Shown here piece by piece: positions 9,771-35,599 of a stretch of 53,671 nt of DNA. The notes beneath the pieces were generated by a model. The model saw nothing but the letters and a program-made list of their open reading frames with translations. It had not been told where the DNA came from and did no database searches. Each line of letters opens with the position of its first letter. The stretch's first letter is position 1. Position numbers and translations under genes: made by a program. The stretch is from the NCBI GenBank assembly GCA_012523135.1, contig JAAYJD010000214.1, positions 1-53,671 of the forward strand, written 5' to 3'. This DNA is from Clostridiaceae bacterium (GTDB taxonomy: Bacteria > Bacillota > Clostridia > Saccharofermentanales > UBA5734).

Positions 9771-9792
9771 CTCATCGTATGTGATGAATCAT

Positions 9793-10284
9793 CTAGTCAA
9801 TCAGGATCTCCAGGGCTTGGCGGATCAGGACCGTCTGACCGTCCGGCAGCGTCAGGATCGCGTTGATCTGGACGATCGGCTGGCTGTCCGGCTGTCGTTC
9901 CTGCATCCAGTGGTCGGGTTCGTAATCCAGGTAATGCGTGTAAAAACGGATACTGTTCAGTTCCAGGCGATCGGCCAACAGGGTTGGCATCCGTGCCGAG
10001 AAGGTTTCATCCAGCAAAGCGCGGCCGCTGACCGACAGGATTTTGGCCTGCCCTTCCGACAGGCTGGCCGGGTCCAGGCACAGGCAGGCGGCCGGCAGGA
10101 TCTGCTCGACGTGCTGATGGGATCTGACCACCAGCACATGGCTGTAGGCCTTCTGCACCGCCTGGACCCCGAGCGGGATCAAAAGCAGCAGGCAGAACCC
10201 GGCCACGAGCAAAACGGATCCTACGGAACCGTTTCTGTTGTGTAGACGCGGCAGTCCAGTTGAATCGCGCAGGTAAATTGCCAT
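9793..10284 (-). CDS. Putative Tad minor pilin/pseudopilin (TadE/TadG-like); start uncertain
   Basis: Basic leader RLHNRNG|S followed by a hydrophobic helix. Position within the tad cluster. Confidence 0.6.
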   Translation of the reverse strand: MAIYLRDSTGLPRLHNRNGSVGSVLLVAGFCLLLLIPLGVQAVQKAYSHVLVVRSHQHVEQILPAACLCLDPASLSEGQAKILSVSGRALLDETFSARMPTLLADRLELNSIRFYTHYLDYEPDHWMQERQPDSQPIVQINAILTLPDGQTVLIRQALEILID

Positions 10285-10610
10285 GTGGCCTCCTCCATGC
10301 CTAAATCCGCGCGGATGCGCTGTCCGGGACAGGCGGCCTTTACCGTGAGCAGCATGGTCTGGCCAAAGGACGCCCGCTCAGGCGCCTGCACCTGGAGCAC
10401 CGTAAAATGACGGGTTTCCAGTTCGGCGACCAGAGCCGCGGCGGCCGTCTGGGACAAGCCACCGGACTGGTCCATGACGCGCGCGTAGTGGTGGCACACG
10501 GCGTCAAACTCGATGCGCTTGAACAGGGGCAGGCTGCACAGCAGCAGCGCCAGCACCAAAGCTGTCATGATAAACAACCCGAACACCGCAGCCAGCAGCC
10601 GTCCGATCAT
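10221..10610 (-). CDS. Putative Tad-associated membrane protein / minor pilin
   Basis: N-terminal hydrophobic helix, then a small soluble domain (MDQSGGLS). Follows the pilin gene. Confidence 0.6.
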   Translation of the reverse strand: MIGRLLAAVFGLFIMTALVLALLLCSLPLFKRIEFDAVCHHYARVMDQSGGLSQTAAAALVAELETRHFTVLQVQAPERASFGQTMLLTVKAACPGQRIRADLGMEEATWQFTCAIQLDCRVYTTETVP

Positions 10611-10709
10611 GTTGCACCTCCTGTCCGCCCCTGCCAGGCATCCGCCTACCCGGCGGCCAGGCGGGCCGCTTGCCCGGGCTCTTTGCCCGCCGCCGGGCAG
10701 TGCTCGTGA

Positions 10710-10958
10710 TTACGTGCCGGTTGTAAAGATGGTCGTCGCCATGTCGTTCCACCAGGTCGTCAGATTGCCCATCAGACTGGTGGCAAAGGTCTTAAGCCCC
10801 GGAATGACGATGACAGCCGCGATGATGATGCCGGCCGCGATGCCGATCACCTCGTTGAGGCCGAATCCGTTGCGTTTGCGGATGCGCATCAGCTTGAATG
10901 CGCGCTTCCTCGTCAGGTCGTGCAGGCGGCTGCGCCCGCGGGGGTTGCGTTGTCTCAT
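10710..10958 (-). CDS. Flp-type major prepilin (82 aa; 31-aa basic leader, 51-aa mature)
   Basis: GGAGG RBS before ATG at 10958. Class III signal KRNG|FGLNE with Glu at +5, followed by a hydrophobic helix. Confidence 0.85.
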   Translation of the reverse strand: MRQRNPRGRSRLHDLTRKRAFKLMRIRKRNGFGLNEVIGIAAGIIIAAVIVIPGLKTFATSLMGNLTTWWNDMATTIFTTGT

Positions 10959-11003
10959 GTCCAAACCTCCCATTAGTTATTGCCGGCAGTCCCGGGACTG
11001 CAT

Positions 11004-11873
11004 TCAGCCGAAAATCATGTCCAGCGCGCTCAGCGCCCCCTGGACAAGCGGATAGAGAAACAGGACGGCCACCGGAACCAGCCCGGCCGCGGCCGTCCAT
11101 ACCAGGCGATGGCGTACGCGGTTTGTTTCAACCTGCATCTGGCTGAAAAAACGGGCAAACAGCAGGTCTTCCATGCGCTGCATGCTCTTGCCCGCGACAC
11201 CGGTCTGCAGGCACTGCCGGATGTTGGCCTGAAGCAGATCGACATCCTGACCCGAAAAGGATTGCCGAATCACGGTGAAAGCCTGCTCCATGTCACAGGT
11301 CACTTCGAAGATCGCGGTAAATCGGATCAGCACCGGTTGGACAACGCGGTCGCGGACGGCCTCCGGCAAGCCACGCAGCGCGTCGGTTACCGCAACGCCG
11401 GATAGGATCTGGCTTTCGAGAAAGCGGTACACTTTGTAGAGGCTGCGCGAGAATGCCTGCTGCCGTTTGCGCACCCGGATTTGAACGGTATTGTTGACCC
11501 ATGCGGCAAGCCCGGCAGCGGATGCGACGGGGATCCAAGGCGATGGATGGGTCAGCAGCCCATAGGCAAGCAGGAAGACCGGAATCCCCAGCTGCGCCAG
11601 AAGGTACAGTTCCAGTGCCAGGGGGTGATGGTAACCTGCCTTTTGCAGGAACAGACGGATCCGGGCGGCAAATCTGCGCGCTTGCAGCGCGGACAGCCAG
11701 CCCGGCTGAAAAGCGGCTGTTCGGCCAGGCTGGTTGTCCAGTGCGGCCTGGGCCAGGCGCGGATCCAGGCTGCGAAGCCAGGCGGGCAGCAGATGATACA
11801 GGCAAACAAACAGCGCCAGGCCTGCCGGAAGCAGGATGAGCATGACCTGCATCGCACCGCGATCCATCTTCAT
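11004..11873 (-). CDS. tadC: TadC-like T2SS-F platform protein
   Basis: N-terminal TM, central TM pair, T2SSF-like soluble domain, C-terminal TM (LFLYPLV). Follows tadB. Confidence 0.75.
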   Translation of the reverse strand: MKMDRGAMQVMLILLPAGLALFVCLYHLLPAWLRSLDPRLAQAALDNQPGRTAAFQPGWLSALQARRFAARIRLFLQKAGYHHPLALELYLLAQLGIPVFLLAYGLLTHPSPWIPVASAAGLAAWVNNTVQIRVRKRQQAFSRSLYKVYRFLESQILSGVAVTDALRGLPEAVRDRVVQPVLIRFTAIFEVTCDMEQAFTVIRQSFSGQDVDLLQANIRQCLQTGVAGKSMQRMEDLLFARFFSQMQVETNRVRHRLVWTAAAGLVPVAVLFLYPLVQGALSALDMIFG

Positions 11874-12439
11874 TGTCCGATCCTGTGCTGGATCAGGCAG
11901 AACGCGGCGACCGCCGCCAGATAGCTGAGGATACCGAACGCTGACAGCATCCGGCCGGCCGGGCTGACCGTAAACAGCTGCAGCAGGCCAGGACTCGTCC
12001 CCAGGCGCAGCAGGCAGCTGGCCGGGACTGCCAGCAGGACCAGCCCGGTCAGCTGGCGATCGTGCGCGTTGGACAGCTTGCGACGGGTATACTCCTCTTC
12101 GATCCGGTTCAGCTGCCAGGCCAGGTGCTCAAGCAGCATGGGCAGATCACCGCGGTAACGCAGATTGAATCGAAGGGCCACCAACAGGTCCTGGAAATGC
12201 TCGTGGCTGATGTTTTGGCGCATCAGGTCCAGGGCCTGTTCGACGGCCATCCCCCCGCGCACACGGGTGACAAAAGCAGAGACCGCCGCGCGCATCGGCT
12301 GGTCCAGGCCGCCGTCCAGGCATTTCTGGCAGGCATAAAGCAGGTCTTCACGAACCTGGCACCACCTGCTCAGCGAGTTGGTCAGCTGGAGCGTCTGCTG
12401 ACGAATCCGGACCGTCTGGCCAGGCCACGTCCATTTCAT
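11870..12439 (-). CDS. tadB: TadB-like T2SS-F platform protein (short, 189 aa)
   Basis: T2SSF-like helical domain (VEQALDLM, RGDLPMLL) followed by two TMs. GGGAGGAG RBS. Follows tadA. Confidence 0.7.
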   Translation of the reverse strand: MKWTWPGQTVRIRQQTLQLTNSLSRWCQVREDLLYACQKCLDGGLDQPMRAAVSAFVTRVRGGMAVEQALDLMRQNISHEHFQDLLVALRFNLRYRGDLPMLLEHLAWQLNRIEEEYTRRKLSNAHDRQLTGLVLLAVPASCLLRLGTSPGLLQLFTVSPAGRMLSAFGILSYLAAVAAFCLIQHRIGQ

Positions 12440-13649
12440 AGTGATCAGTCTCCTCCCGATATCCGTGAATCACAACGATTCTGGCGACTTTGAACTGTTT
12501 GAGGCAAACGACAATGTCCAGGCTGCTGCCGATCATGCGGCGCAAGGTCCTGTCGCTTTCTCCGCGCGAAGCCGGCCGGGCAAGGGCCAGCAGGCGGTCC
12601 GGCACCTCTTCCGGCCGGTCCGCATGTATCGTACCCAGGCAGCGGTGACCCGAGAAGGCAGCATGGATAAAAGCCAGCGCCTCATCACCGACGATTTCGC
12701 CGATGCAGTAGGCATCCAGCGACATGGTCAGTCCGTCGCGGACCAGATCGTACAGGCTGACCGGACGGCCGCCCTCGTGCGGCTTCTTGATGCGCTGCAG
12801 CAGGCAGCAGGGTTTTTCCGGGTACAGTTCGCTGTCGCTTTCGGCGACCAGCACGCGCTCCAGACGCGGCAACGCTTCCAGAAAGGCCCGCAGCAACGTT
12901 GTCTTGCCAGCCGCGCCCTTGCCGCAGAAAAGGACGGAGCGTCCTTCTTCGGCCCAGTGCCGCAGCCGATCCGCAACCGCCTGATCGAACATGCCGCTGG
13001 CTTGCAGATCCGGCAGGTGCAGCGATTTTTGTCGGTGCTTGCGGATGCTGAGCGTCGGATAACGGACACTGCGCGGCGGAATGGTCACATTGATGCGCAG
13101 GCGGTTCTGTTCGTCTGTCACGCGGCAGTGGCTGTCATTCTCGTTGATTTGACCGCCGTTGCGGATGACCAGGAGGCGGCAGAACGTGTCATAGGTTTGA
13201 GCGTCCGGAAACCGTAATGGCAGCAACTGGCGGACCCCGTCCCTCTTGATCGTGAAGGCATCCGGAGCCGTGGCGTCCACATCGGTGACCGCTTCATCCA
13301 GGATGCAGGCCTGCAGCGGACCGTAGCCGAACAGGAAATCCATCACCTGCTGCTGCAGGTCCCTGCGGAAAAACCCGGCCCGGACACTGACCTGGTCGGC
13401 GGTGCGGGCGATGATGTCCCACAGCGCCTGGCGGGGAACCTTGTGGGCGGCGACGGCGGCGACCGTGGCGGCATCTGACTGCAGGATCTGGCTGCACACG
13501 GTCGCGACCAGCGCCTGCAGATCTGGCTGCACTGGTTCCGGACCGTCGGAGCTGGCCTGGTCCATCAGGAGCAGCGGCCGGCCGGCTGCATTTGACTGGA
13601 CTTCCTGCAGCTTGCGGGCCAGCCAGGCGTGGGATGAAACGACAGGCAT
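12348..13649 (-). CDS. tadA: Tad secretion ATPase TadA/CpaF
   Basis: YGPLQ, VTDVD, LSIRKHR, Walker A GKGAAGKTT, Walker B CIGEI, GH..LGTIHA His box. Confidence 0.92.
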   Translation of the reverse strand: MPVVSSHAWLARKLQEVQSNAAGRPLLLMDQASSDGPEPVQPDLQALVATVCSQILQSDAATVAAVAAHKVPRQALWDIIARTADQVSVRAGFFRRDLQQQVMDFLFGYGPLQACILDEAVTDVDATAPDAFTIKRDGVRQLLPLRFPDAQTYDTFCRLLVIRNGGQINENDSHCRVTDEQNRLRINVTIPPRSVRYPTLSIRKHRQKSLHLPDLQASGMFDQAVADRLRHWAEEGRSVLFCGKGAAGKTTLLRAFLEALPRLERVLVAESDSELYPEKPCCLLQRIKKPHEGGRPVSLYDLVRDGLTMSLDAYCIGEIVGDEALAFIHAAFSGHRCLGTIHADRPEEVPDRLLALARPASRGESDRTLRRMIGSSLDIVVCLKQFKVARIVVIHGYREETDHYEMDVAWPDGPDSSADAPADQLAEQVVPGS

Positions 13650-13650
13650 G

Positions 13651-15246
13651 TCACGTGTCTCCTTTCCTGGGTAAGCGCGGCAAATCGAGCTGTTCGACCA
13701 GGCGGCCGTATTCGGCTTTGTTCTTGTCGCTGAGCGCAGCCGCGTAAGGCCGCGTGCGGCGGCCGGCTGCCCGTTTCACGCTCGCCGAAATCCGCCCAGC
13801 CAGGCGATTGTCGCAAAGTTCAGCCATGGTGCTGCCGCTCAAGTCGTGCTGACGGTCACTGGGGAAAGCGACATAGTGCAAACGGTCAAGCGGCAGGTGA
13901 TGGCGGCTGATCAAAAAATCGACCATCCGGTTGACTTCCCGGAACGTACCCAGTTCCGCCTTGAGCGGCACAACAATCCGGTCGGCCGTCAGCAGGGCCA
14001 GGCAGGTGAAGGCGTCGAAGATAGTCCGGTTGACCAGCACCAGGACCAGATCCGCCAGCAGCTGCGCGGTCTGAATAACCTGGTGCAGCGAATCCAGGTG
14101 CACATATTCGTAATCTTCCAGCTTGACCGTGCCGGCGAGCAGACGCACTCGGGAGATCGCGGTGTCCTGCGCCAGGGTGCGCAGGAGCTGCGGCGTCAGG
14201 CGCCCTTGCTGCTGGGCCTGCAGCGCGGCTTCCAACCCGCAGGATTGTCCGGGCGGCCGGTTGCGGTACAGGTGACCTGGTACGCCAAGCAGCAGGTCAG
14301 CCCGCGGGTTGAGCAGGTTGGCGTCGATGACGAGAACATCGCAGCTGCCGGCCAGGCACGCGGCCAGCTCGCAACCGCAGGCGGGACCATCCCAGACACA
14401 CAGCAGGGGTGCGGCCAGGCGGACGGGTTCCGGCTGCGCTTCCTCCCGGGTCACTGCCGTCTCCCCGGTGTGTTCCGGTGACTGCCGGCCGATGCGCTCC
14501 AGCGCAAAGGCCAATTCATCAGCCTGGTCCAGGCGCTGGCCGGGATCCGCGTGCAGGCAGCGGCTGAGCAGGCTTTGCAGAGCATCTGGCACATGGGCTG
14601 CCGCCTGGCTGACCGGCAGGGACCGGCAGCGCTCAGGCGATCTGCCGGTCAGCAAGACCAACGCGGTCAGGCCAAGCGCATAGAGATCGCTGCCCGCCCC
14701 GCAGCCTCTGCCAGCTTGTTCCGGCGCGGCATACTGGGGCGTCAAGGCCTGCGGGGTATCCGCGGCGTAGGCCACCGGTGGCCTTTCTTCGTCAGACTGC
14801 AGGAACCGCGCCGCGCCGAAATCGATCAGTCCGGCACGGTTACGCTCGTCGATGACCAGGTTGTCCGGCTTGATGTCGAGATGCGCCAGGGGCTGTTCAT
14901 TTTGCTGATGCAGATAAACCAGGGCCCGGGCCCATTGCAGCAGCCAGGGCAGTACCTGCTGCCAGGGCAGACCGCCGGGCTCGCCGGCCAGGATCTCCTG
15001 GGCGGTCCGGCCAGGCAGGAAGGAAAAAACAGCATACCAGGTGCCCGTATCGTCACAGGTCTGGCCCAGGCAGCGGGGAACACCGGGGTGCCAGGCCTCC
15101 GCCAGCCATTCTGGAACCCTGGGATCGACAAACGAGTCCAACCGCTTGAGCACGACGGGGCGCCCATCGCCATCGCGGGCCAGAAACCCGGCAGATAGCG
15201 TTTTTTCCTGCCGATATCCGTTCCATGCCAGCTTCTCCAGTGCCAT
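13651..15246 (-). CDS. Hanks-type Ser/Thr kinase fused to a degenerate ParA/MinD-like (CpaE/TadZ-type) domain (531 aa)
   Basis: VVLK, HLDIKPDN, DFG, TPQYAAPEQ, SDLYALG. C-terminal VLVIDANLLNPRADLLLG, LLAGT, LLTADRIVVPL. ATG at 15246 with AGGAGG RBS. Confidence 0.85.
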   Translation of the reverse strand: MALEKLAWNGYRQEKTLSAGFLARDGDGRPVVLKRLDSFVDPRVPEWLAEAWHPGVPRCLGQTCDDTGTWYAVFSFLPGRTAQEILAGEPGGLPWQQVLPWLLQWARALVYLHQQNEQPLAHLDIKPDNLVIDERNRAGLIDFGAARFLQSDEERPPVAYAADTPQALTPQYAAPEQAGRGCGAGSDLYALGLTALVLLTGRSPERCRSLPVSQAAAHVPDALQSLLSRCLHADPGQRLDQADELAFALERIGRQSPEHTGETAVTREEAQPEPVRLAAPLLCVWDGPACGCELAACLAGSCDVLVIDANLLNPRADLLLGVPGHLYRNRPPGQSCGLEAALQAQQQGRLTPQLLRTLAQDTAISRVRLLAGTVKLEDYEYVHLDSLHQVIQTAQLLADLVLVLVNRTIFDAFTCLALLTADRIVVPLKAELGTFREVNRMVDFLISRHHLPLDRLHYVAFPSDRQHDLSGSTMAELCDNRLAGRISASVKRAAGRRTRPYAAALSDKNKAEYGRLVEQLDLPRLPRKGDT

Positions 15247-27396: not shown

Positions 27397-28083
27397 TCAG
27401 GACAAGATCTTTTCCAGGTCCTCCAGGCTGAAGATCTCGTAGGTGGTCGGAACTGCGGGGTTGGCCGTCTTCCGGCCCGGGTTGTACCAGCATGTATCCA
27501 AGCCGGCATTCTGTCCGCCCAGCATGTCGGCCGACAGGGAGTCGCCGACCACCAGGGCGGTTCGTTTGTCATCGATCGCAAGCGCTTCCAGCACATAATC
27601 GAAGAAACCGGCCTGCGGCTTCTGGCAGCCGATCTCTTCTGAGATGAAAATGCCGCTCATGAGTCCGGCCAGCGGCGATGACCCGATGCGCGCATGCTGC
27701 ACCGCAGCGATGCCGTTGGTGATCAGGGACAACTGGTAACGCGGCGCCAGGCGGCGGCAGACCGCTTCCGCCCCATCGATCAGGAAGGCACAGCGGCCAA
27801 GCTCGCTCATGTAGACCCGGTTGACGGCTTCCGGGTCGTCCGGGGCCGCCAACGCACCGAGCAGCCGGCTGAAGCGCTCGACCTTGAGCGCGTCTTTGTC
27901 AATCTGTCCTTTTTCGAACGCTTCCCACAGTTCCTGGTTGATCGCCTGGTAGCGCAGCCGGATGGCGCGGCTGAACGGCAACTGCAGCCGCCGCAGCGTC
28001 TGGCGCAGCGCTTCCTCTTCCGCGCGTTCGAAATCGAACAGTGTGCCGTCAGCATCCAGCAGGATATGGCGATAAATATTCAT
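27397..28083 (-). CDS. yjjG: HAD-family pyrimidine 5'-nucleotidase, YjjG-like
   Basis: LLDADGTLFDF, ITNG, QKP, VGDSLSADMLGG. Confidence 0.88.
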   Translation of the reverse strand: MNIYRHILLDADGTLFDFERAEEEALRQTLRRLQLPFSRAIRLRYQAINQELWEAFEKGQIDKDALKVERFSRLLGALAAPDDPEAVNRVYMSELGRCAFLIDGAEAVCRRLAPRYQLSLITNGIAAVQHARIGSSPLAGLMSGIFISEEIGCQKPQAGFFDYVLEALAIDDKRTALVVGDSLSADMLGGQNAGLDTCWYNPGRKTANPAVPTTYEIFSLEDLEKILS

Positions 28084-28148
28084 AGTGTCCCCCTGTTGTT
28101 ACCCTCATTGTGACAAAATGCGCCCAGCCCTGTCAACCGGCTGGCTGA

Positions 28149-29091
28149 TCATCCCGGCAATTTTAGCACCGCCAGCAGCAGCGCGATCATCAGGGGCAGG
28201 CTGATCAGGCTGTAGAGGTGGGAGACGAAGCAGATCTGGGCGCCTTCCGTGCTGTCCTTGCCGTGGGCCTGGGGAAAGATGACACCGTTGAGGCCAAACG
28301 GCATGGCCAGCAGGAGCACCGCCAGCAGGGTCGTTTCCGGATCGGCACCGACCAGGCGAAGCACAGCCAGCGCCGCCAGGGGGATGACGGCCAGCCGGAT
28401 CCAGGCCGCGATATGGCTCCTCAGGCCGGACAGCAGCTTGCAGGGCGTAAACGCGCCCAGGACGAACCCGGTCAGCAGCATGGCGACCGGCGCCATGCAC
28501 TGCGCGGCCAGGTTGAGGGTGTCCGTCACAACGGCCGGCAGCGGAACCCGCAGCAGGCCGACGACGATCCCGGCAAAGAGCGCGACCATCGACGGATTGA
28601 GGATGGACTTGAAGGTGAAGGTGCGAGCCGGGTTGAGGATGTAGATGCCGACCGTATAGATAAACAGCTGGTACGGGATGGCGTAGACCATGTAGCGGAA
28701 CAGCGTGGTTTCACCGAACAGCGCCAGCACCAGCGGATAGCCCAGGTAACCCAGGTTGGGCACCGTGAAGGAGTAGACATAGACATCGCGGCTGACCGGA
28801 TCGTGCGCAAAGCGGCCGGCCAGCAGGCGGGCCAGCCCATAGGTGACGGCTACGACCAGGAAACCGGTCAGGATCATGGGCCCCTGGTCGCGGAACACCT
28901 GGACGCGAAAATTCTTGGCCATGGTATTGAAGCACAACGCGGGCAGAAACAGCAAAACCTCAAGCCGGGACAGCACCAGGCCGGTCTGGTCCGGCAGACG
29001 GGCGCTGCGCCGCAGCAAATAGCCGGCGGCGAACAGGGAGAAAAATGTGACCAGTTGCAGGGCGGTGACACTCAGCGGCTCGATTTGGCAT
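28149..29091 (-). CDS. AEC (auxin efflux carrier)-family transporter; apparent +1 base immediately after the start codon
   Basis: FLPALCF, PNLGYLGYPL, LNPSMVALFAG, MPFG motifs. The reading frame continues upstream as QIEPLSVTALQLVTFF, but the RBS-linked ATG (29091) is one base out of frame. Confidence 0.8.
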
Positions 29092-29105
29092 GCCCCCTTC
29101 TGTCT

Positions 29106-30413
29106 TCAGCGGAACGACTGGCTGGCCAGGCGGGCAAAGCGGTGGCAGAGGTCGTCGATCGCCAGCTCCGGATAGCCGTTCAGATAGGTTAAAACCTTGT
29201 TGTTAAAGGGACGATACCAGCTTTCGGGGATCTTGTCCAGGCCGTAGGCCGCGCCGAACAGGCTGCCGACCGTCGCGGCCGTACAGTCGTTGTCATAGCC
29301 CATGGCCACCGTTTCCCCGATGCAGCGCGTGAAGTCATCGCCCCCGATGATCAGGCCGAAGATGGTCAGGCAGGCGTTCAGGTTGGTGTGGACCCCGCTC
29401 ATGTCACCGAAGCGTTCCCGGACGGCCTCCCGGGCGCCGGCATAGCCGTTCAGCGACGGGCCGGTGGCCAGGGCCCAGCGGATGTCGCGGGCCAACAGGC
29501 AGTCCTGCGGGATCTCCCCCAGACCGATGCGCAGCGCCTCGAGCGGCGAAGCGCAGGCGAACGCGGCGGCAATCGCGGCGCTGAAGAACATGGCGCCATA
29601 CACGCCGTTGCGCCGGTGGCTGAGCCGTGCGTCCTGCCAGGCCATGGCCGCCGCCTTTTCCGGCAGGCCCGGCGCCAGGTAGCCCCAGGGGTCGGAGCGG
29701 ATGTCCGCCCCGATCCACTGGACAAACGGATTATCCTTTTCGGCCGCCCGCTCGGCCGGTATACCGGCCCTCAGGTTCTGCAGCGCGACATCCTCGGCGG
29801 TGCAGGCGTAGGGCAGCCACCGCAGCCAGCAAGCGCCGACGTCCGCGGTCGTGAAATCCAGGCCGCAGCTTTCGGCGATCAGCAACCCGAGAATCGTGTA
29901 GGTCACGTCGTCGTCGACCGGAACCGAGTCTAAACCGGTCCGAGTGTAGGCCTGGCAGGGGCTGACCTGGTAGCGCTTGACATACGGCTTGGGAACGGCC
30001 GACCAGTAGTCCCGCGGCGGGAAAGCGTCGCCGATCCAGCCGGCCCAGTCCCGCATCTCCTCGACCGGCCAGAATTCGACCGGCGCGCCCAGCGTGCAAC
30101 CGGCCATACGGCCCAGGAACGCGCCGGCCAGGCGCTCGTCGTAGCGGCTGCGGTCGAAATGCTGCCATAAGGCGCGTTCCGCCTGCGGGCGCAGGCGTCG
30201 AATGCCCTCCAGGTCATCTGGCTCCAAACGCTTGAGTTCCGGATCCTCCTGGAGCGCTTCGACCTGGCGAAGTGTTTGCCAGACCTGCTCGCGGCAGGCT
30301 TTAAGCGCAGCGGCCAGCGCGGCAGGCGAGCTGCCGTACTCGACTTTGAGCCGGACAAATTCGCGTAAACCGGCAACGCCGCGTTCCAGGTCGGGAAATT
30401 CGGGATATTTCAT
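29106..30413 (-). CDS. ADP-ribosylglycohydrolase family protein (435 aa)
   Basis: GRMAGCTLGAPVE, VDDDVTYT, GADIRSD, DNDCTAATVGSLFGA metal-binding motifs. GGAGGT RBS before MKYPEF. Confidence 0.88.
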   Translation of the reverse strand: MKYPEFPDLERGVAGLREFVRLKVEYGSSPAALAAALKACREQVWQTLRQVEALQEDPELKRLEPDDLEGIRRLRPQAERALWQHFDRSRYDERLAGAFLGRMAGCTLGAPVEFWPVEEMRDWAGWIGDAFPPRDYWSAVPKPYVKRYQVSPCQAYTRTGLDSVPVDDDVTYTILGLLIAESCGLDFTTADVGACWLRWLPYACTAEDVALQNLRAGIPAERAAEKDNPFVQWIGADIRSDPWGYLAPGLPEKAAAMAWQDARLSHRRNGVYGAMFFSAAIAAAFACASPLEALRIGLGEIPQDCLLARDIRWALATGPSLNGYAGAREAVRERFGDMSGVHTNLNACLTIFGLIIGGDDFTRCIGETVAMGYDNDCTAATVGSLFGAAYGLDKIPESWYRPFNNKVLTYLNGYPELAIDDLCHRFARLASQSFR

Positions 30414-30459
30414 AGACACCTCCAACAAACGTCCGGTCATGTCCCGGCAGAACGGTCTC

Positions 30460-31218
30460 TCAAAAAAACTCGAAGTGGTCCCTGACAGCCTTGATGTGCG
30501 ACAGCACCGGCTGCGCGGACGTCGAGAGCGCGTCGTGTTCGTAGACACACAGGTACATGGAACAGCCCAGCAGCGGTCCGATTCGCCGGTGCAGCTTGCA
30601 GCGTCCCGACGACAGGAACAGGAACGGAACGGCCAGGTGTTCATGGAGCAGGTGGGTGATCCGAAGGTTTTCCACCTCTTCCTCGACCGTTTGCGCCCCC
30701 GTGACGATTTTGACGTAATCTGCCCCCCGGCTTTGCTGCGCCAGGGCCATCGCCAGCACCCGCTCCGCCGGCAAGAAACGGCAGGCATGGGAGGACATGA
30801 GCACTTTGGCGCCGCAGGCATGGACCTTCCCGATCAGATCCTTTTGCCTTTGAATCGCCCCGGGGTCCATGGACAGCTCATCGGGAGAAGGATCGAAATA
30901 GTCTGCCATCACATCGACCAGGCTGGCGCCGCTGCGCGCCAGATCAATCAGCCCCGACGCCAGTTCTTCGTCCGTTTTTCCCGTGTTTTCCCCGTTCCTG
31001 TAATAAGTCGCGTAGATGGAAAAGCCCTGCATCGCCTGGAAAATCCGTTTGTAGGCCTCGGGGGTCTGGTGTTCCCGCTTGAGCTTGTCCGCCTGAATCG
31101 CAAAGGCTTCCGCGCCCGCGGGAATCGCCTTCCGGACCGTTGCAATAGCGCGATCCGGATCCGGAGATTGGATCATGACGGTCAGCAGGGGGTTCCCGGC
31201 ACAAAAAAAGTCCGCCAT
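30460..31218 (-). CDS. Type I 3-dehydroquinate dehydratase-like TIM-barrel protein
   Basis: IYATYYR, VDVM, LMSSH (catalytic His), ADYVKIV (Schiff-base Lys), HRRIGPLLG. TGATG coupling with the SDR gene. Confidence 0.7.
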   Translation of the reverse strand: MADFFCAGNPLLTVMIQSPDPDRAIATVRKAIPAGAEAFAIQADKLKREHQTPEAYKRIFQAMQGFSIYATYYRNGENTGKTDEELASGLIDLARSGASLVDVMADYFDPSPDELSMDPGAIQRQKDLIGKVHACGAKVLMSSHACRFLPAERVLAMALAQQSRGADYVKIVTGAQTVEEEVENLRITHLLHEHLAVPFLFLSSGRCKLHRRIGPLLGCSMYLCVYEHDALSTSAQPVLSHIKAVRDHFEFF

Positions 31219-31976
31219 CAACGGGCCCTCCCCAAGGCGTTGCGACCGCCATCGATCAGGATGTTCGCGCCGTTGATGAACGTGCCCTTGTCGGACGCGA
31301 TAAAGAGGATCAAATCGACAATTTCCTGCGGTTCTCCAGCCCGGCCGATGGCCGTTTTCATGGAAGCCATGGCGGCGCGGGTCAGGACGGGGCCGGGGGA
31401 TACGCAGACACAACGGACCCCGTACTTCCCGCCGTAATGGGCCATGGACTTGGTCAAGCCGTACATAACACCGCTTTTTGCCGTAGCATAGTCGGCACCG
31501 CGCGGATCGCCTTCTTCACCGGTGATCGAGCCGATGTTGACCAGCAGGCCGCTTTGCTGTTCCCGCATGAACTTCATCGCGGCATGGCAAAAATAAAACG
31601 GCCCCTTCAAGTTCACATCGAGGCCCCAATCAAACACGTCGATCGGGATATCCGGAAATTCCAGCTCGCCGGGAACGTTCTGGATGCGCACGGACGAACC
31701 GCCGGCAAAGTTGACGACGACGTCGATGCTCCCGAATACATCCGTAGCCTGCCGGCAGACAGCCTGGACCTGGTCGTAAGCGCGGACATCGCAGACAAGG
31801 CCCAGGGCCTTGCCCGTATGTCCGGCATTGATGCCGGCGACACAAGCCTCCAGGGCCTGGCCGTTGACATCGGCCATGACGACGTTGCCGCCAAGATCCG
31901 CGAAGTTCTGGCTGAACAGCAGTCCCATCCCCGACGCTGCGCCGGATACAATCGCTGTTTTTCCTGCGAAGTCCAT
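31218..31976 (-). CDS. SDR family oxidoreductase
   Basis: SGAASGMG, DVVVNFAG, NIGS, YATAK, VSPG, IDGG. Confidence 0.93.
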   Translation of the reverse strand: MDFAGKTAIVSGAASGMGLLFSQNFADLGGNVVMADVNGQALEACVAGINAGHTGKALGLVCDVRAYDQVQAVCRQATDVFGSIDVVVNFAGGSSVRIQNVPGELEFPDIPIDVFDWGLDVNLKGPFYFCHAAMKFMREQQSGLLVNIGSITGEEGDPRGADYATAKSGVMYGLTKSMAHYGGKYGVRCVCVSPGPVLTRAAMASMKTAIGRAGEPQEIVDLILFIASDKGTFINGANILIDGGRNALGRAR

Positions 31977-32017
31977 AACACGCACCTCCTAGCCTGAGAT
32001 CATGCGCGAGGTTTCGC

Positions 32018-32935
32018 TCACGCGGTGATCCTCCTGACCAGTATATCCTGAAAGGCCGCAAAATCCAGCCACGATGTGGCGCACCGGATTGGCTTCGCGC
32101 CCGGGTCGATGACCGTATCGCCGTGTTCCGAGACCGTAACACCCAGCGTCTCGATCTGGACGAGTTCTTCCGAAAAAGCGAGGTAGACAGCTTCCGTGTC
32201 ACAGAGCAGGGTGCTGCGCTCGAAAAGCATGCCTGGCTGCACGTCCTTCATGCCCTTCCTGGCCTGCAGCCAGACCCGGTAGTTCTCGATCAGCGCCCGC
32301 GCGAGCGGCCTGTCGCTGTGCAAGACCTCCTGGTATTTTTCGCCGGTTAAGACGATCGTGCCGCAGGTGTCGAGCGGGGCGATCGTCATCTCCCAGTCAG
32401 CCGCGAAAACTTGCCTGCCGGCGTCCGGCTGCGCGGCCACGTTGTATTCCCGGCTTGGCCGGTCGGCTCCGAAGTAGCCTTTGCGGATACTGCCATGCAT
32501 CCCGATAACCCTGGCTTTGGACGCTATCTCCGGCTGCATGCGCAGCGCGGCGGCAAGATTGCCGAGCGGACCGATGGCGATGACGGTCACGACTTCAGGC
32601 GATCCCATGACGCATTGGGCCAGCTTGGTCACGCCGTCGCGATAGACATCACCTGCATAACGGTTCATGTCAAATGAATCGAGCCAGGCCGCCTGGAAAC
32701 CTGCCGTGTCTGATGTTGCCTCGCCCAGACCGATCGGGATATCCGTGCGGCCGGCAATTTCCAGCATCCGGGCGACGATTTGGGCCTTGTAATACGTGTT
32801 GTGGCCTGTTGTCAGGATCAGCCGGATATCGAGTTCAGGCGAATTGAGCAGCATGACCAGGGCCCAGGTATCATCGATATCGCCCCCGATATCGGTATCC
32901 AAAATGACGGGGATTCTTTTTGCCGGCGCCAACAC
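32018..32935 (-). CDS. Nucleoside hydrolase (IU-NH family)
   Basis: ILDTDIGGDIDD Ca2+-binding motif, IGPLGNLA, EYNV. The C-terminal HD motif reads CD. Confidence 0.88.
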   Translation of the reverse strand: MLAPAKRIPVILDTDIGGDIDDTWALVMLLNSPELDIRLILTTGHNTYYKAQIVARMLEIAGRTDIPIGLGEATSDTAGFQAAWLDSFDMNRYAGDVYRDGVTKLAQCVMGSPEVVTVIAIGPLGNLAAALRMQPEIASKARVIGMHGSIRKGYFGADRPSREYNVAAQPDAGRQVFAADWEMTIAPLDTCGTIVLTGEKYQEVLHSDRPLARALIENYRVWLQARKGMKDVQPGMLFERSTLLCDTEAVYLAFSEELVQIETLGVTVSEHGDTVIDPGAKPIRCATSWLDFAAFQDILVRRITA

Positions 32936-32952
32936 GCGCGCTTCCTTTCGTG

Positions 32953-34047
32953 CTAGCGCCAGGAGGCGGGATCGATGTCGATGAGACGCCCCGCCTGCAG
33001 GCTGTCATGAATGGCCTCGCAGGTCCGGGTGGCGATCATCGCTTCGCTACCGTCCGGATAGCTGCCGGCCAGATCCGCAAGGACTGCGCCGCGCTTAAGG
33101 TGGCCGGCCAGCTGGACGAAGTGGCGGATGGAGTCGCAGGTGTAGCCGCTCAGGGGCAGGTCGAAGCGGCTGTCCGGGATCAGGGGTTCGGACTTGGCGA
33201 ACGGATTGCTCACCTGGCAGCCGGGCTGGTCGGCGAAGCAGGACAGAAAACCCCGGTCCTGGGAATCGATTTCGCCGATGCCCTCGGTGCCGATCAGGCG
33301 GATCTGCTGGTTGACGATGCTGGGAAAGCCGTCCGGCAGGATCCAGGACGCGTGAAAGGTGATCACCGCGCCGTTGTCGTACACGACCGCCGCCGAAACA
33401 TGGTCGTAGCTGTCGATGCCCATGGACAGGAGCTTGCGCTTGTTGCCGTGGGCAAAGACCCGGACGGGGCGGGCCTCGAGCAGCCAGCTGACCAGGTCGT
33501 AGAAATGGGTGCCCAAAAACCAGGCGGGCGAACTGCGGTCCGCCCAGCTCTTGAACCAGACGGCCGGCACTTCGATCCGGTCTTCCATATAGACATCGCC
33601 ATAGAGGATCTGTCCGAGGCGGCCCTGCCGGATGCTGCGCTTCAGTTCCCGGTGTGCCGGGTCATAGCGCTTGTGGAAATCGACCGCCAGCAGGACGCCG
33701 GCGTCCTGCGCCGCCGCGATCATCTCATAGCCTTCTTCGGTCCGCGTCGCGATCGGCTTCTGGCAGAGGATATGGAGGCGGTGGGCCGCCGCGTCCAGGA
33801 CAGCCTGGCGGTGCAGGTGGTCGGGCGTCACCACCACGACGGCGTCCAGGCTTTCCCGCTCCAGCATCTCATGGTAGTTCGCATAGCCCCGGATTTGAAA
33901 GCGCTGCACGGCGCGCTCCAGCGTCTGCGGGGCGATGTCGGCGACAGCCACCAGGTCGGCTTCGCCTGATCGGACGGCGGCGGACAGGACATTGAGGACG
34001 TGGGTGCCATAGACACCGGCCCCGATAACGGCGATTCGAACGGGCAT
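32953..34047 (-). CDS. Gfo/Idh/MocA family NAD(P)-dependent oxidoreductase
   Basis: IAVIGAG, VVTPDHLH, HILCQKP, DFHKRYDP, GTHFYD. Confidence 0.92.
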   Translation of the reverse strand: MPVRIAVIGAGVYGTHVLNVLSAAVRSGEADLVAVADIAPQTLERAVQRFQIRGYANYHEMLERESLDAVVVVTPDHLHRQAVLDAAAHRLHILCQKPIATRTEEGYEMIAAAQDAGVLLAVDFHKRYDPAHRELKRSIRQGRLGQILYGDVYMEDRIEVPAVWFKSWADRSSPAWFLGTHFYDLVSWLLEARPVRVFAHGNKRKLLSMGIDSYDHVSAAVVYDNGAVITFHASWILPDGFPSIVNQQIRLIGTEGIGEIDSQDRGFLSCFADQPGCQVSNPFAKSEPLIPDSRFDLPLSGYTCDSIRHFVQLAGHLKRGAVLADLAGSYPDGSEAMIATRTCEAIHDSLQAGRLIDIDPASWR

Positions 34048-34075: not shown

Positions 34076-34156
34076 TTGTCCGGCGCGTCTGTCTGGGGTA
34101 TAATGGCTGACTATGAGTCCATGTAACGTTACAGTTGCCTTTGTGCCATTATACCA
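34076..34156. promoter_or_regulatory. Face-to-face promoters with a central perfect palindrome (LacI-type operator candidate)
   Basis: Plus strand: TTGTCC (34076-34081), 17-bp spacer, TATAAT (34099-34104). Minus strand: TGG-TATAAT (34156-34148). Palindrome TGTAACGTTACA at 34122-34133. Confidence 0.7.
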
Positions 34157-34186: not shown

Positions 34187-35599
34187 ATGACTGAGCTTTC
34201 AACCCAGTCAGAACCGCGCCAGATGCGCCGCAACATCCTGCGCCTGAGCTGGCCGGCGATCCTGCGCCAGTTTTTGCAGAGCATCGTCGGGGTCGTCGAT
34301 GTCATGATGATCGGGCGCTTGGGCGCCGCGGCCATCGCGGCGGTCGACATGGCCAACCGGCTCGTGTTTGTCCTGATCGGAACGTTGATGGCCATGACCA
34401 TCGCGACCACCGCCCTGGTCGCCCACAACATCGGGGCGGGCAACCGCAAGATGGCCAACCACATCATGTGGCAGTCGCTGCTGGGCGGCCTGCTGCTGGC
34501 CGTCATCCTGGCCGTCGGCGGCATGCTGGGCGCCCGCAGGATGCTCGAGCTGATGATGATCCTGATGGACGAGGTGGATCCCTTCGTCCTGGCGGAGGGC
34601 ACGCAGTACCTGCGCATCGTGCTGGCCTCGATGGTGGTCGCCCTGCCCATGATGGTGATCAACGCCGTGCTGCAGGGGCTGGGCGACATGAAGACGCCGC
34701 TCTACATCATGATCATTTCCAACATCGTCAACGTGCTGCTCAATTACCTCTTGATCTTCGGTATCTGGATCTTCCCTGAAATGGGCGTGCGCGGCGCCGC
34801 CTGGGGAACCGCCCTGGCCCGTCTGGCCGGCGCAGTCATCGGGCTGTTTGTGCTCTTGCGCGGCACGGCCGATATCCAGCTGCACCTGGTCCATGTTTCC
34901 TGGAAACTGGATTTTTCGGTTTTGCGCGGTGTTTTGAAAATTGGGATCCCGGCGGCGTTCGAGCAGCTGATCCGCCAGAGCAGCATGATTCTCTACACGG
35001 CACTGGTCGCCAGCCTGGGCACGGTGACCCTGGCGGCCAACGCCATCACGATGAACATCAACTCGCTGTCCTTCATGCCGGGCTTCGGCTTCGGTATGGC
35101 CGCGACAACCCTGGTCGGACAGTCGCTGGGTGCGGGACGCAAAGACCTGGCCCGCGCCTATGCCCGGCAGACCACCCTGATCACCTTTGTTTTGCTGGCG
35201 GCCGCCTCGGTCGTGATGTATTTCTTTATCACGCCGATTGCCAGGCTGTACAACGACAACCCCCTGGTTGTTTCGCTGGCCGCTTCGGCGCTCCGGATCT
35301 TCGTCATCTTTCAGCCGCTGTTCGGCATCTTCATGGTCCTGGCCGGGGCCTTGCGCGGCGCCGGTGACACCAAATGGGTCATGTACATCACGGCGATCGG
35401 CAACTGGGGCGTCCGATTGCTGTTCAGCCTGCTGTTCGTCTTCTATTTCGATCTGGGCCTGAATGGTTTCTGGCTGGCCATGGGCGTGGACATCGTGATC
35501 CGCACCGCCCTGATCAGCTGGCGCTTTGCCTCCGGCAAGTGGCAGCACCACAAGGTGCTCGGCGCGAGCCGGGTGAAAACTCAGAACAAGTCCGCGTAG
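34187..35599 (+). CDS. MATE family efflux transporter
   Basis: DVMMIGRLG, QGLGDMKTP, LLIFG...MGVRGAAWGT, GQSLGAG, LRGAGDT. Confidence 0.94.
   Translation: MTELSTQSEPRQMRRNILRLSWPAILRQFLQSIVGVVDVMMIGRLGAAAIAAVDMANRLVFVLIGTLMAMTIATTALVAHNIGAGNRKMANHIMWQSLLGGLLLAVILAVGGMLGARRMLELMMILMDEVDPFVLAEGTQYLRIVLASMVVALPMMVINAVLQGLGDMKTPLYIMIISNIVNVLLNYLLIFGIWIFPEMGVRGAAWGTALARLAGAVIGLFVLLRGTADIQLHLVHVSWKLDFSVLRGVLKIGIPAAFEQLIRQSSMILYTALVASLGTVTLAANAITMNINSLSFMPGFGFGMAATTLVGQSLGAGRKDLARAYARQTTLITFVLLAAASVVMYFFITPIARLYNDNPLVVSLAASALRIFVIFQPLFGIFMVLAGALRGAGDTKWVMYITAIGNWGVRLLFSLLFVFYFDLGLNGFWLAMGVDIVIRTALISWRFASGKWQHHKVLGASRVKTQNKSA

Follow-up and report, generated by a model that had tools for sequence, protein, structure and literature searches.

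Hydrolases of the ADP-ribosylglycohydrolase (ARH) and IU-NH families are found side by side in the rus loci of Bacteroidetes and in yegTUV of Escherichia coli, both of which are loci of the nutrient type (Glowacki et al., bioRxiv 10.1101/574913). Members of the same two families share a row of genes in a contig of a Clostridiaceae bacterium that we analyzed here (JAAYJD010000214.1 of assembly GCA_012523135.1; its full length of 53,671 nt is called the window in what follows). The row consists of seven co-oriented genes on the minus strand (34047-27397) which code, in this order, for a Gfo/Idh/MocA dehydrogenase (Gfo), an IU-NH-like hydrolase (NH-like), a short-chain dehydrogenase (SDR1), a type-I-dehydroquinase-like protein (DHQL), an ARH-fold hydrolase, an AEC family transporter and a YjjG-type nucleotidase. 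A preliminary description of this DNA had read the first six as an operon for one dedicated catabolic pathway, which our data do not support. We consider it fairly probable that the array is a composite operon, which arose in one lineage of the genus when an inducible oxidise-and-dehydrate cassette was joined to older housekeeping genes.

As in rus, hydrolases of the ARH and IU-NH families occur together in the row of the window. The rus loci differ in having a ribokinase, SusC/D, a RusT-type permease and RusR, none of which is present in the window unit (27.4-34.2 kb); furthermore, the ARH and NH-like genes of the window are not co-conserved, and its NH-like protein is devoid of the catalytic His. 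In agreement with the preliminary description, neither a ribokinase nor an ABC transporter is encoded between 27.4 and 34.2 kb, while a ribokinase-like gene was located on contig C324 of the same genome. The row also matched no pathway already described: the literature on clusters of ARH and nucleoside hydrolase genes gave only the rus precedent.

We found the complete row, in unchanged order, only in close relatives (loci L018/L019, L103 and L023, the latter being genome G006), whose proteins are 81-95% identical to those of the window. L103 carries the MATE and GH109 genes in addition to the seven-gene row. Other relatives possess a GH109-MATE / ARH backbone in which ARH comes right after MATE, namely L014/L015 (ARH 71% identical) and L104 (ARH 68% identical). 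There, AEC lies 3-6 kb beyond ARH, behind unrelated genes. In L014, L015 and L206 it is paired with a YjjG (HAD) gene ~6 kb from ARH, and in L104, where it lies ~3 kb from ARH, no YjjG/HAD match was found. Three other species of the same genus show comparable arrangements: MATE / ARH with AEC-YjjG ~6 kb off in G002 (L206), GH109-MATE / ARH in G003 and GH109-ARH in G007. The Gfo-NH-SDR-DHQ block is absent beside ARH in G002, G003, G007, L014 and L104. By parsimony, the adjacency of MATE/GH109 and ARH is the ancestral state. Because ARH adjoins MATE/GH109 in these other species of the genus, the Gfo-NH-SDR-DHQL block apparently entered the G000/G006 lineage by insertion at a site between MATE and ARH.

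Beyond the close relatives the gene order is not conserved, with the other genes present in 0 of 79 DHQL loci and 1 of 80 ARH loci. For DHQL, a pattern scan with one genome per species confirmed 304 relatives, of which the best 80 were kept and the 79 non-self loci analyzed, neighboring orthologs being counted at ≥40% identity. By this measure, orthologs of ARH, NH-like, AEC, YjjG and Gfo were absent from all 79. For ARH, 80 metagenome loci were scanned (53-91% identity), with at least 1 kb of upstream sequence in 48 and at least 1 kb of downstream sequence in 56. The block was found only in L103, and AEC only in L103 and L104. The neighbors of ARH are otherwise highly variable, the commonest (ribokinase-like PfkB, MATE and a substrate-binding protein (SBP)) occurring in 4 loci each; another context is an Opp-type ABC system with an HTH-cupin regulator. 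The preliminary description had named missing co-conservation as an outcome that would count against it, and the neighborhood scans show none outside the lineage; the full array is confined to the immediate relatives L018, L019, L023 and L103. Since the array is a recent, lineage-specific patchwork of separately inherited gene pairs, it lends little support to the idea of one new pathway. As a six-gene pathway it therefore deserves little weight, and so young a patchwork should not be used for inferring a single substrate.

The promoter region points in the same direction. The preliminary description had placed a promoter/operator region upstream of the row, and we found one there, consisting of an extended -10 element, TGGTATAAT (34148..34156, minus strand; read directly and kept upstream of Gfo in the relative L018), and a perfect 12-bp palindrome, TGTAACGTTACA (34122..34133), at approximately +9 to +20 of the transcript. 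The palindrome occurs as a single exact copy both in the window and in the 3.4-Mb assembly (expected 0.065). It is conserved in the block-bearing L018 and L019 and absent from the intergenic region of L014, which lacks the block. Being present wherever the block is present and absent in L014, it suggests that the promoter/operator arrived with the block. The palindrome is a candidate operator common to the operon and to the divergent MATE efflux gene (34187..35599, plus strand; TIGR00797, 317 bits), whose promoter overlaps the 5' leader of the operon and the palindrome. The MATE promoter (TTGTCC-17-TATAAT, 34076-34104) faces the extended -10 element of the operon across the palindrome (34076-34156), and thus one bound protein could block both transcripts. 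The usual LacI/cre half-site pattern is 7+7, whereas the palindrome here is 6+6. A regulon was not apparent: the genome has no second exact copy, and the sole copy with one mismatch lies within a coding region on contig C251. That contig, which carries a ParA/ParB-like pair (9786-13866) and has a seemingly lower G+C content, might represent a plasmid or a contaminant from binning.

According to the composite reading, the older backbone MATE / ARH ... AEC-YjjG would be of the housekeeping or damage-control type, comprising an orphan ARH-fold ribosyl hydrolase, a transporter and a house-cleaning nucleotidase. Between MATE and ARH, a four-gene cassette with its own extended -10 element and unique palindromic operator would have been inserted. 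It would consist of a WlbA/IolG-like Gfo dehydrogenase, a His-less IU-NH-like glycosidase, SDR1 and a Schiff-base enzyme with the dehydroquinase (DHQase) fold. That the four inserted genes function as one oxidise/hydrolyse/dehydrate cassette is a possibility. Read-through from the new promoter may now reach ARH and YjjG, which have the appearance of conserved housekeeping enzymes. The locus would thus illustrate how an inserted cassette captures downstream housekeeping genes under a new operator. The base composition gave no sign of a foreign origin of the block, as the G+C content is 61-64% in the region and equally 0.61-0.64 in the block and its flanks.

The layout of the row is that of an operon. 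The six gene calls of the preliminary description, all on the minus strand, proved correct, and the family names it gave were borne out by Pfam; we added the YjjG-type gene as a seventh. The junctions measure, in order, 17, 41, -1, 46, ~22 and 65 nt, and a GGAG-type ribosome-binding site precedes every start of the seven genes. At 31218, where a TGATG coupling had been noted, the A of the SDR1 stop codon TGA is indeed the first base of the DHQL ATG, which couples DHQL translationally to SDR1. Terminator-like matches within the region (11, vs 7.0 ± 2.5 in shuffled sequence) are at background level, and none is convincing as an internal terminator. An Rfam scan over 26.5-36 kb for riboswitches or leader RNAs gave chance-level matches only. 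Gaps this narrow, with no strong terminator among them, would allow transcription as a single unit, and we infer that the genes may be co-transcribed.

These same features favor the view that all six or seven genes form one catabolic pathway, in which AEC would import an N-riboside, ADP-ribosyl or cyclitol conjugate, NH-like and ARH would cleave it, YjjG would dephosphorylate, Gfo and SDR1 would oxidise and DHQL would dehydrate. One promoter/operator, short gaps, the SDR1-DHQL coupling and an ARH-AEC gap of only ~22 nt all fit such a pathway, as do the occurrence of ARH together with nucleoside hydrolases in the Bacteroidetes ribose-utilisation loci (bioRxiv 10.1101/574913) and a ribokinase gene that precedes ARH homologues in 4 loci. 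We nevertheless regard it as rather unlikely: co-conservation is lacking outside the lineage, ARH and AEC-YjjG were in place here before the block, the unit encodes no kinase and no dedicated importer whose specificity is known, a promoter of its own may serve YjjG, and the genes that accompany SDR1-DHQL in 60 other species lie, in this genome, on a different contig. Some of what supports a single pathway also weighs against the composite reading that we prefer. The seven-gene order is unbroken in L018/L019, L103, G006 and the window, which makes at least four independent assemblies, the ARH-AEC gap is narrow, and one regulated promoter may serve all the genes. Moreover, NH-like, ARH and YjjG share a riboside/nucleotide theme, and a coherent pathway could have been put together recently from parts of mosaic origin, as modules are what new pathways are made of. 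With the best 80 of 304 DHQL loci and many short ARH contigs scanned, less frequent combinations of these genes may have escaped notice. To these are added two departures of DHQL from AroD and the reliance of our chemical proposal on analogy of fold and residues, both of which are taken up below.

The one part of the row that is widely conserved is the pair of SDR1 and DHQL. SDR1 is a classical short-chain dehydrogenase (31218..31976, minus strand; 252 aa from ATG, with a GTG alternative at 31985; adh_short_C2 E 3e-43; PF13561/PF00106) in which we read directly the Ser/Tyr/Lys catalytic residues and, following strand 2, an Asp of the kind that NAD+ users typically have. DHQL (30460..31218, minus strand; 252 aa; DHquinase_I PF01487, E 1e-12) has 79 non-self loci at 49-57% identity, in rumen, gut and digester Oscillospiraceae, Acutalibacteraceae, Faecousia and Lachnospiraceae. 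Among those with enough upstream sequence, 60 of 76 have an SDR1 ortholog (56-71% identity) directly upstream of DHQL. As judged from these comparisons, SDR1-DHQL is the only evolutionarily stable unit within the inserted cassette. Its usual partners, after clustering of the neighbors in the best 79 loci, are a divergent AraC regulator (51 loci) and a medium-chain dehydrogenase/reductase (MDR) of the PIG3 family of NAD(P)H quinone/enone oxidoreductases (49 loci; TIGR02824, 341.7 bits vs a cut-off of 296.8). Less frequent are a second SDR (~24 loci by tblastn), a different Gfo/Idh/MocA paralogue (22), a second MDR resembling the Tdh/IolM-like Zn-dependent alcohol dehydrogenases (Zn-ADH; 16) and a lactonase-like metallo-beta-lactamase (MBL) protein (14). 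The window's own genome holds this usual partner set without SDR1-DHQL on contig C118 (1-5415), where an AraC gene stands next to Gfo2-SDR2-PIG3-type MDR-MDR2 (Zn-ADH)-DMT transporter. In the rumen and gut Clostridia (L024-L102, 79 species loci), the AraC/SDR/DHQL/PIG3-reductase module carries no transporter. A DHQL homologue in G032 (36% identity) stands in a different context and was not taken as an ortholog.

DHQL keeps most of the machinery of AroD. The 50 best fold matches in the PDB to its AlphaFold2 (AF2) model (pLDDT 93.9) are all AroD or AroD domains of larger enzymes, with template-modelling (TM) scores mostly of 0.74-0.82 and ~17% identity. With AroD of E. coli/Salmonella (PDB 1QFE, 3M7W) it shares the TIM-barrel fold (TM ~0.8), and alignment to the E. 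coli enzyme by hhalign equates H144, K170, R211 and R74 of DHQL with H143, K170, R213 and R82, respectively. H144, K170 and R211 are invariant across 19 homologues, and the lid residues S232/Q236 of AroD are kept as well. In contrast, Glu86, the partner of His143 in AroD, is replaced by an invariant Asn78, and the N-terminal substrate-binding half of DHQL (first 60 residues) could not be aligned to AroD, so that no equivalents of E46/R48 were assigned. Given the changed Glu86 and the diverged N-terminal half, the substrate of DHQL is probably not 3-dehydroquinate itself. The score against TIGR01093 (33.8 bits, cut-off 139.3) is below equivalog level. DHQL is the genome's sole PF01487 gene, while a type II aroQ is present on contig C325. 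A role as the organism's biosynthetic dehydroquinase was ruled out, based on this aroQ and the low TIGR01093 score. Neither the DHQL locus nor the 79 related loci have aro neighbors, and DHQL is partnered by an SDR rather than by an AroE/YdiB-type dehydrogenase. The pair has preserved the imine machinery of AroD although it stands apart from the shikimate pathway.

Oxidation by a dehydrogenase prior to elimination is known from other systems. In the levoglucosan pathway (LgdA/B1/B2/C), in B. thetaiotaomicron (BT_2158/BT_2159) and in inositol metabolism (IolG/IolE), NAD-dependent oxidation by a Gfo-type enzyme gives a ketone, which is followed by beta-elimination and later by reduction. BT_2158/BT_2159 presumably belong to a wider glycoside 3-dehydrogenase locus of B. 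thetaiotaomicron. With its C3 ketone, C2-H and C1 leaving group, the DHQase reaction agrees in regiochemistry with these Lgd/BT_2158/Iol-type pathways. The eliminases differ, since that of Lgd/BT_2158/IolE is a metal-dependent xylose-isomerase-like TIM barrel, whereas DHQL has the Schiff-base DHQase fold. Pfam searches revealed no xylose-isomerase-like barrel, hydratase or iolD-type gene in the window unit.

By analogy of fold and residues, SDR1 (NAD+-type) would first oxidise a hydroxyl group on the six-membered ring of a polyhydroxylated carboxylate, which would be quinate/cyclitol-like or keto-sugar-acid-like. Lys170 of DHQL would then form an imine with the new ketone, and the beta-hydroxyl (or beta-substituent) would be eliminated to give an enone, which PIG3-type and SDR2 enzymes encoded elsewhere would reduce. 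In this lineage, NH-like and Gfo may feed a glycosylated or ribosylated precursor into the SDR1-DHQL chemistry. We infer this substrate class and the order oxidise-eliminate-reduce from the fold of DHQL, its retained imine machinery and its constant companions, i.e., enone/quinone reductase and ketoreductases. A further extension is that SDR1 and DHQL, together with AraC, the PIG3-type reductase, SDR2, MDR2 and Gfo, form the core of an undescribed anaerobic oxidise/Schiff-base-dehydrate/reduce pathway of rumen and gut Clostridia, which would dehydroxylate quinate, shikimate and other carboxylates of the hydroaromatic or cyclitol type, and which a digester lineage would have rewired behind NH-like and Gfo for a glycosylated or ribosylated substrate. 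This extension is speculative and we hold it to be improbable. To our knowledge, the conversion of quinate and shikimate in the gut is known, but its genes are not. Neither the SDR-DHQase-like module nor this array turned up in the literature on quinate and dehydroquinase in gut anaerobes. The SDR and DHQase-fold pair, accompanied by a fixed reductase set and an AraC regulator and conserved in 60 or more species of Clostridia from rumen and gut, is a testable candidate for unassigned ring-polyol or hydroaromatic metabolism in anaerobes.

The first two genes of the block are those for Gfo and NH-like. Gfo (32953..34047, minus strand; 364 aa; GFO_IDH_MocA E 2e-24; Pfam PF01408/PF22725/PF02894) is an NAD-dependent dehydrogenase that scores far below the cut-offs of its best NCBIfam matches, IolG (117.5 bits, cut-off 355) and UDP-GlcNAc 3-dehydrogenase (117, cut-off 450), as well as those of the models for LgdA (71.1, cut-off 650) and BT_2158 (44.9, cut-off 750), and likewise for BT_2159. 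None of the first six proteins (Gfo to AEC) passes an NCBIfam equivalog cut-off. The best Gfo ortholog among 399 Clostridia genomes is 49% identical and lies at a contig end (G085). The nearest solved structures are 3q2i and 3q2k, which we take to be the UDP-sugar 3-dehydrogenases WlbA. This relationship could be read as a sign that the genes make and export a modified nucleoside or cyclitol metabolite as a small cluster, with a sugar-nucleotide 3-dehydrogenase-like Gfo, an SDR, a DHQase-like dehydratase, a HAD phosphatase and exporters; such clusters typically include carriers of the exporter type and end with a phosphatase. We consider this very improbable, as the array has no aminotransferase, glycosyltransferase, synthase or cyclase, SDR1 carries the Asp that NAD+-dependent (oxidative) SDRs typically have, a biosynthetic route would have little use for two hydrolases, and the mosaic origin speaks against it.

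The NH-like protein (32018..32935, minus strand; 305 aa; IU_nuc_hydro PF01156, E 7e-37) was aligned to E. coli RihC by hhalign. The Asp cluster DTDIGGDIDD (with a 2-residue insert), EYN and the Ca2+-binding D246 are kept and invariant. The catalytic leaving-group His of the LHD/MHD motif is replaced by Cys245 here and by Phe in most relatives. RihC is also its best NCBIfam match (87.9 bits vs a cut-off of 382). Homologues at 50-67% identity, some of them with N-terminal extensions resembling signal peptides, have a patchy distribution that takes in Clostridia, Anaerolineae/Chloroflexi, Sumerlaeia and Planctomycetes. The subfamily is rare in Clostridia, where a sample of 399 genomes yielded it in only 2. 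Their neighbors include GH3, LacI, another Gfo subfamily and GH130-PfkB-GH88, and the Gfo beside the NH-like gene in L022 is of a different subfamily from that of the window. URO-D/MtaA-like genes (L021:4193-5287, L022:11825-12955) were seen near 2 of the 3 NH-like homologues whose contigs were viewed. As a His-less IU-NH subfamily that spans several phyla and occurs in glycan-degrading operons, these proteins are a lead to carry forward.

The ARH-fold hydrolase (29106..30413, minus strand; 435 aa; ADP_ribosyl_GH PF03747, E 1e-48) belongs to the older backbone. Its AF2 model (pLDDT 93.8) is most similar in fold to MJ1187, DraG and ARH3, whose acidic binuclear-metal motifs it keeps (here VPVDDD and GxDNDCT, with E113, D167-169, D374 and D376 invariant). 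It is only 15-20% identical to these enzymes and differs from them in an N-terminal helical extension of ~95 aa, which forms a bundle. A Cys occupies the position of DraG Thr246 in the last metal motif and another that of the Asp of GDALG (which reads 'GCTLG' here). The equivalog scores for DraG and Tri1 are far below cut-off, and an ADP-ribosyltransferase partner is not present. Its role as a hydrolase of ADP-ribosyl linkages is a putative assignment at the family level. The only paralogue in the own genome is 28% identical (contig C288). Highly conserved and without fixed neighbors, this 435-aa ARH-fold orphan is another lead to carry forward.

The last gene of the row (27397..28083, minus strand; 228 aa) codes for a HAD nucleotidase of the YjjG/YfnB family, which matches TIGR02254 with 217 bits (cut-off 159.9) over residues 4-227 of 228. 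A promoter-like TTGACA-18-(TG)CACAAT (28107-28136, minus strand) in the 65-nt gap before it suggests that the YjjG gene may also be transcribed alone. Based on its family membership, one may ask whether the whole array serves as a damage-control and efflux island, in which ARH would strip ribosyl or ADP-ribosyl adducts, YjjG would dephosphorylate non-canonical nucleotides, NH-like would split nucleosides, AEC and MATE would export, and the dehydrogenases and DHQL would detoxify a reactive carbonyl or quinone. Two efflux-type carriers flank the array, a gene for a YbaK-type tRNA-editing domain lies just downstream, ARH behaves like a housekeeping gene in being conserved among variable neighbors with only a distant paralogue, and the usual partners of SDR1-DHQL are PIG3-type quinone reductases. 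But a repressor-type operator suggests induction by a substrate, the other contexts of the NH-like subfamily are glycan-degrading operons, and AEC could transport in either direction; we therefore deem such an island quite unlikely.

The AEC family transporter (28149..29084, minus strand; ~311 aa from ATC; Mem_trans PF03547, E 1e-31) has an unusual start. Its frame offers no ATG, GTG or TTG ahead of the conserved first transmembrane helix, the first canonical start being TTG at 29018. A near-cognate ATC at 29084 lies 9 nt after the ribosome-binding site GAAGGGGG and 22 nt past the ARH stop codon. Both the ATC and the ribosome-binding site are conserved in L018 and L103. An out-of-frame ATG stands between this site and the ATC. 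Since no canonical start precedes the N-terminal helix present in relatives, AEC translation almost certainly starts upstream of 29018, likely at the ATC at 29084.

Downstream of YjjG are genes for a DUF4332 protein, the YbaK-type tRNA-editing domain protein and a GH29 fucosidase. Upstream of the row, beyond the plus-strand MATE gene, a sugar operon on the minus strand (43102-35581) codes for LacI (43102-42032), an SBP, two permeases, a GH13 and a GH109-like protein. This operon is syntenic with L014 and L103, and a paralogue of its GH109-like gene (53% identical) is located on contig C65.

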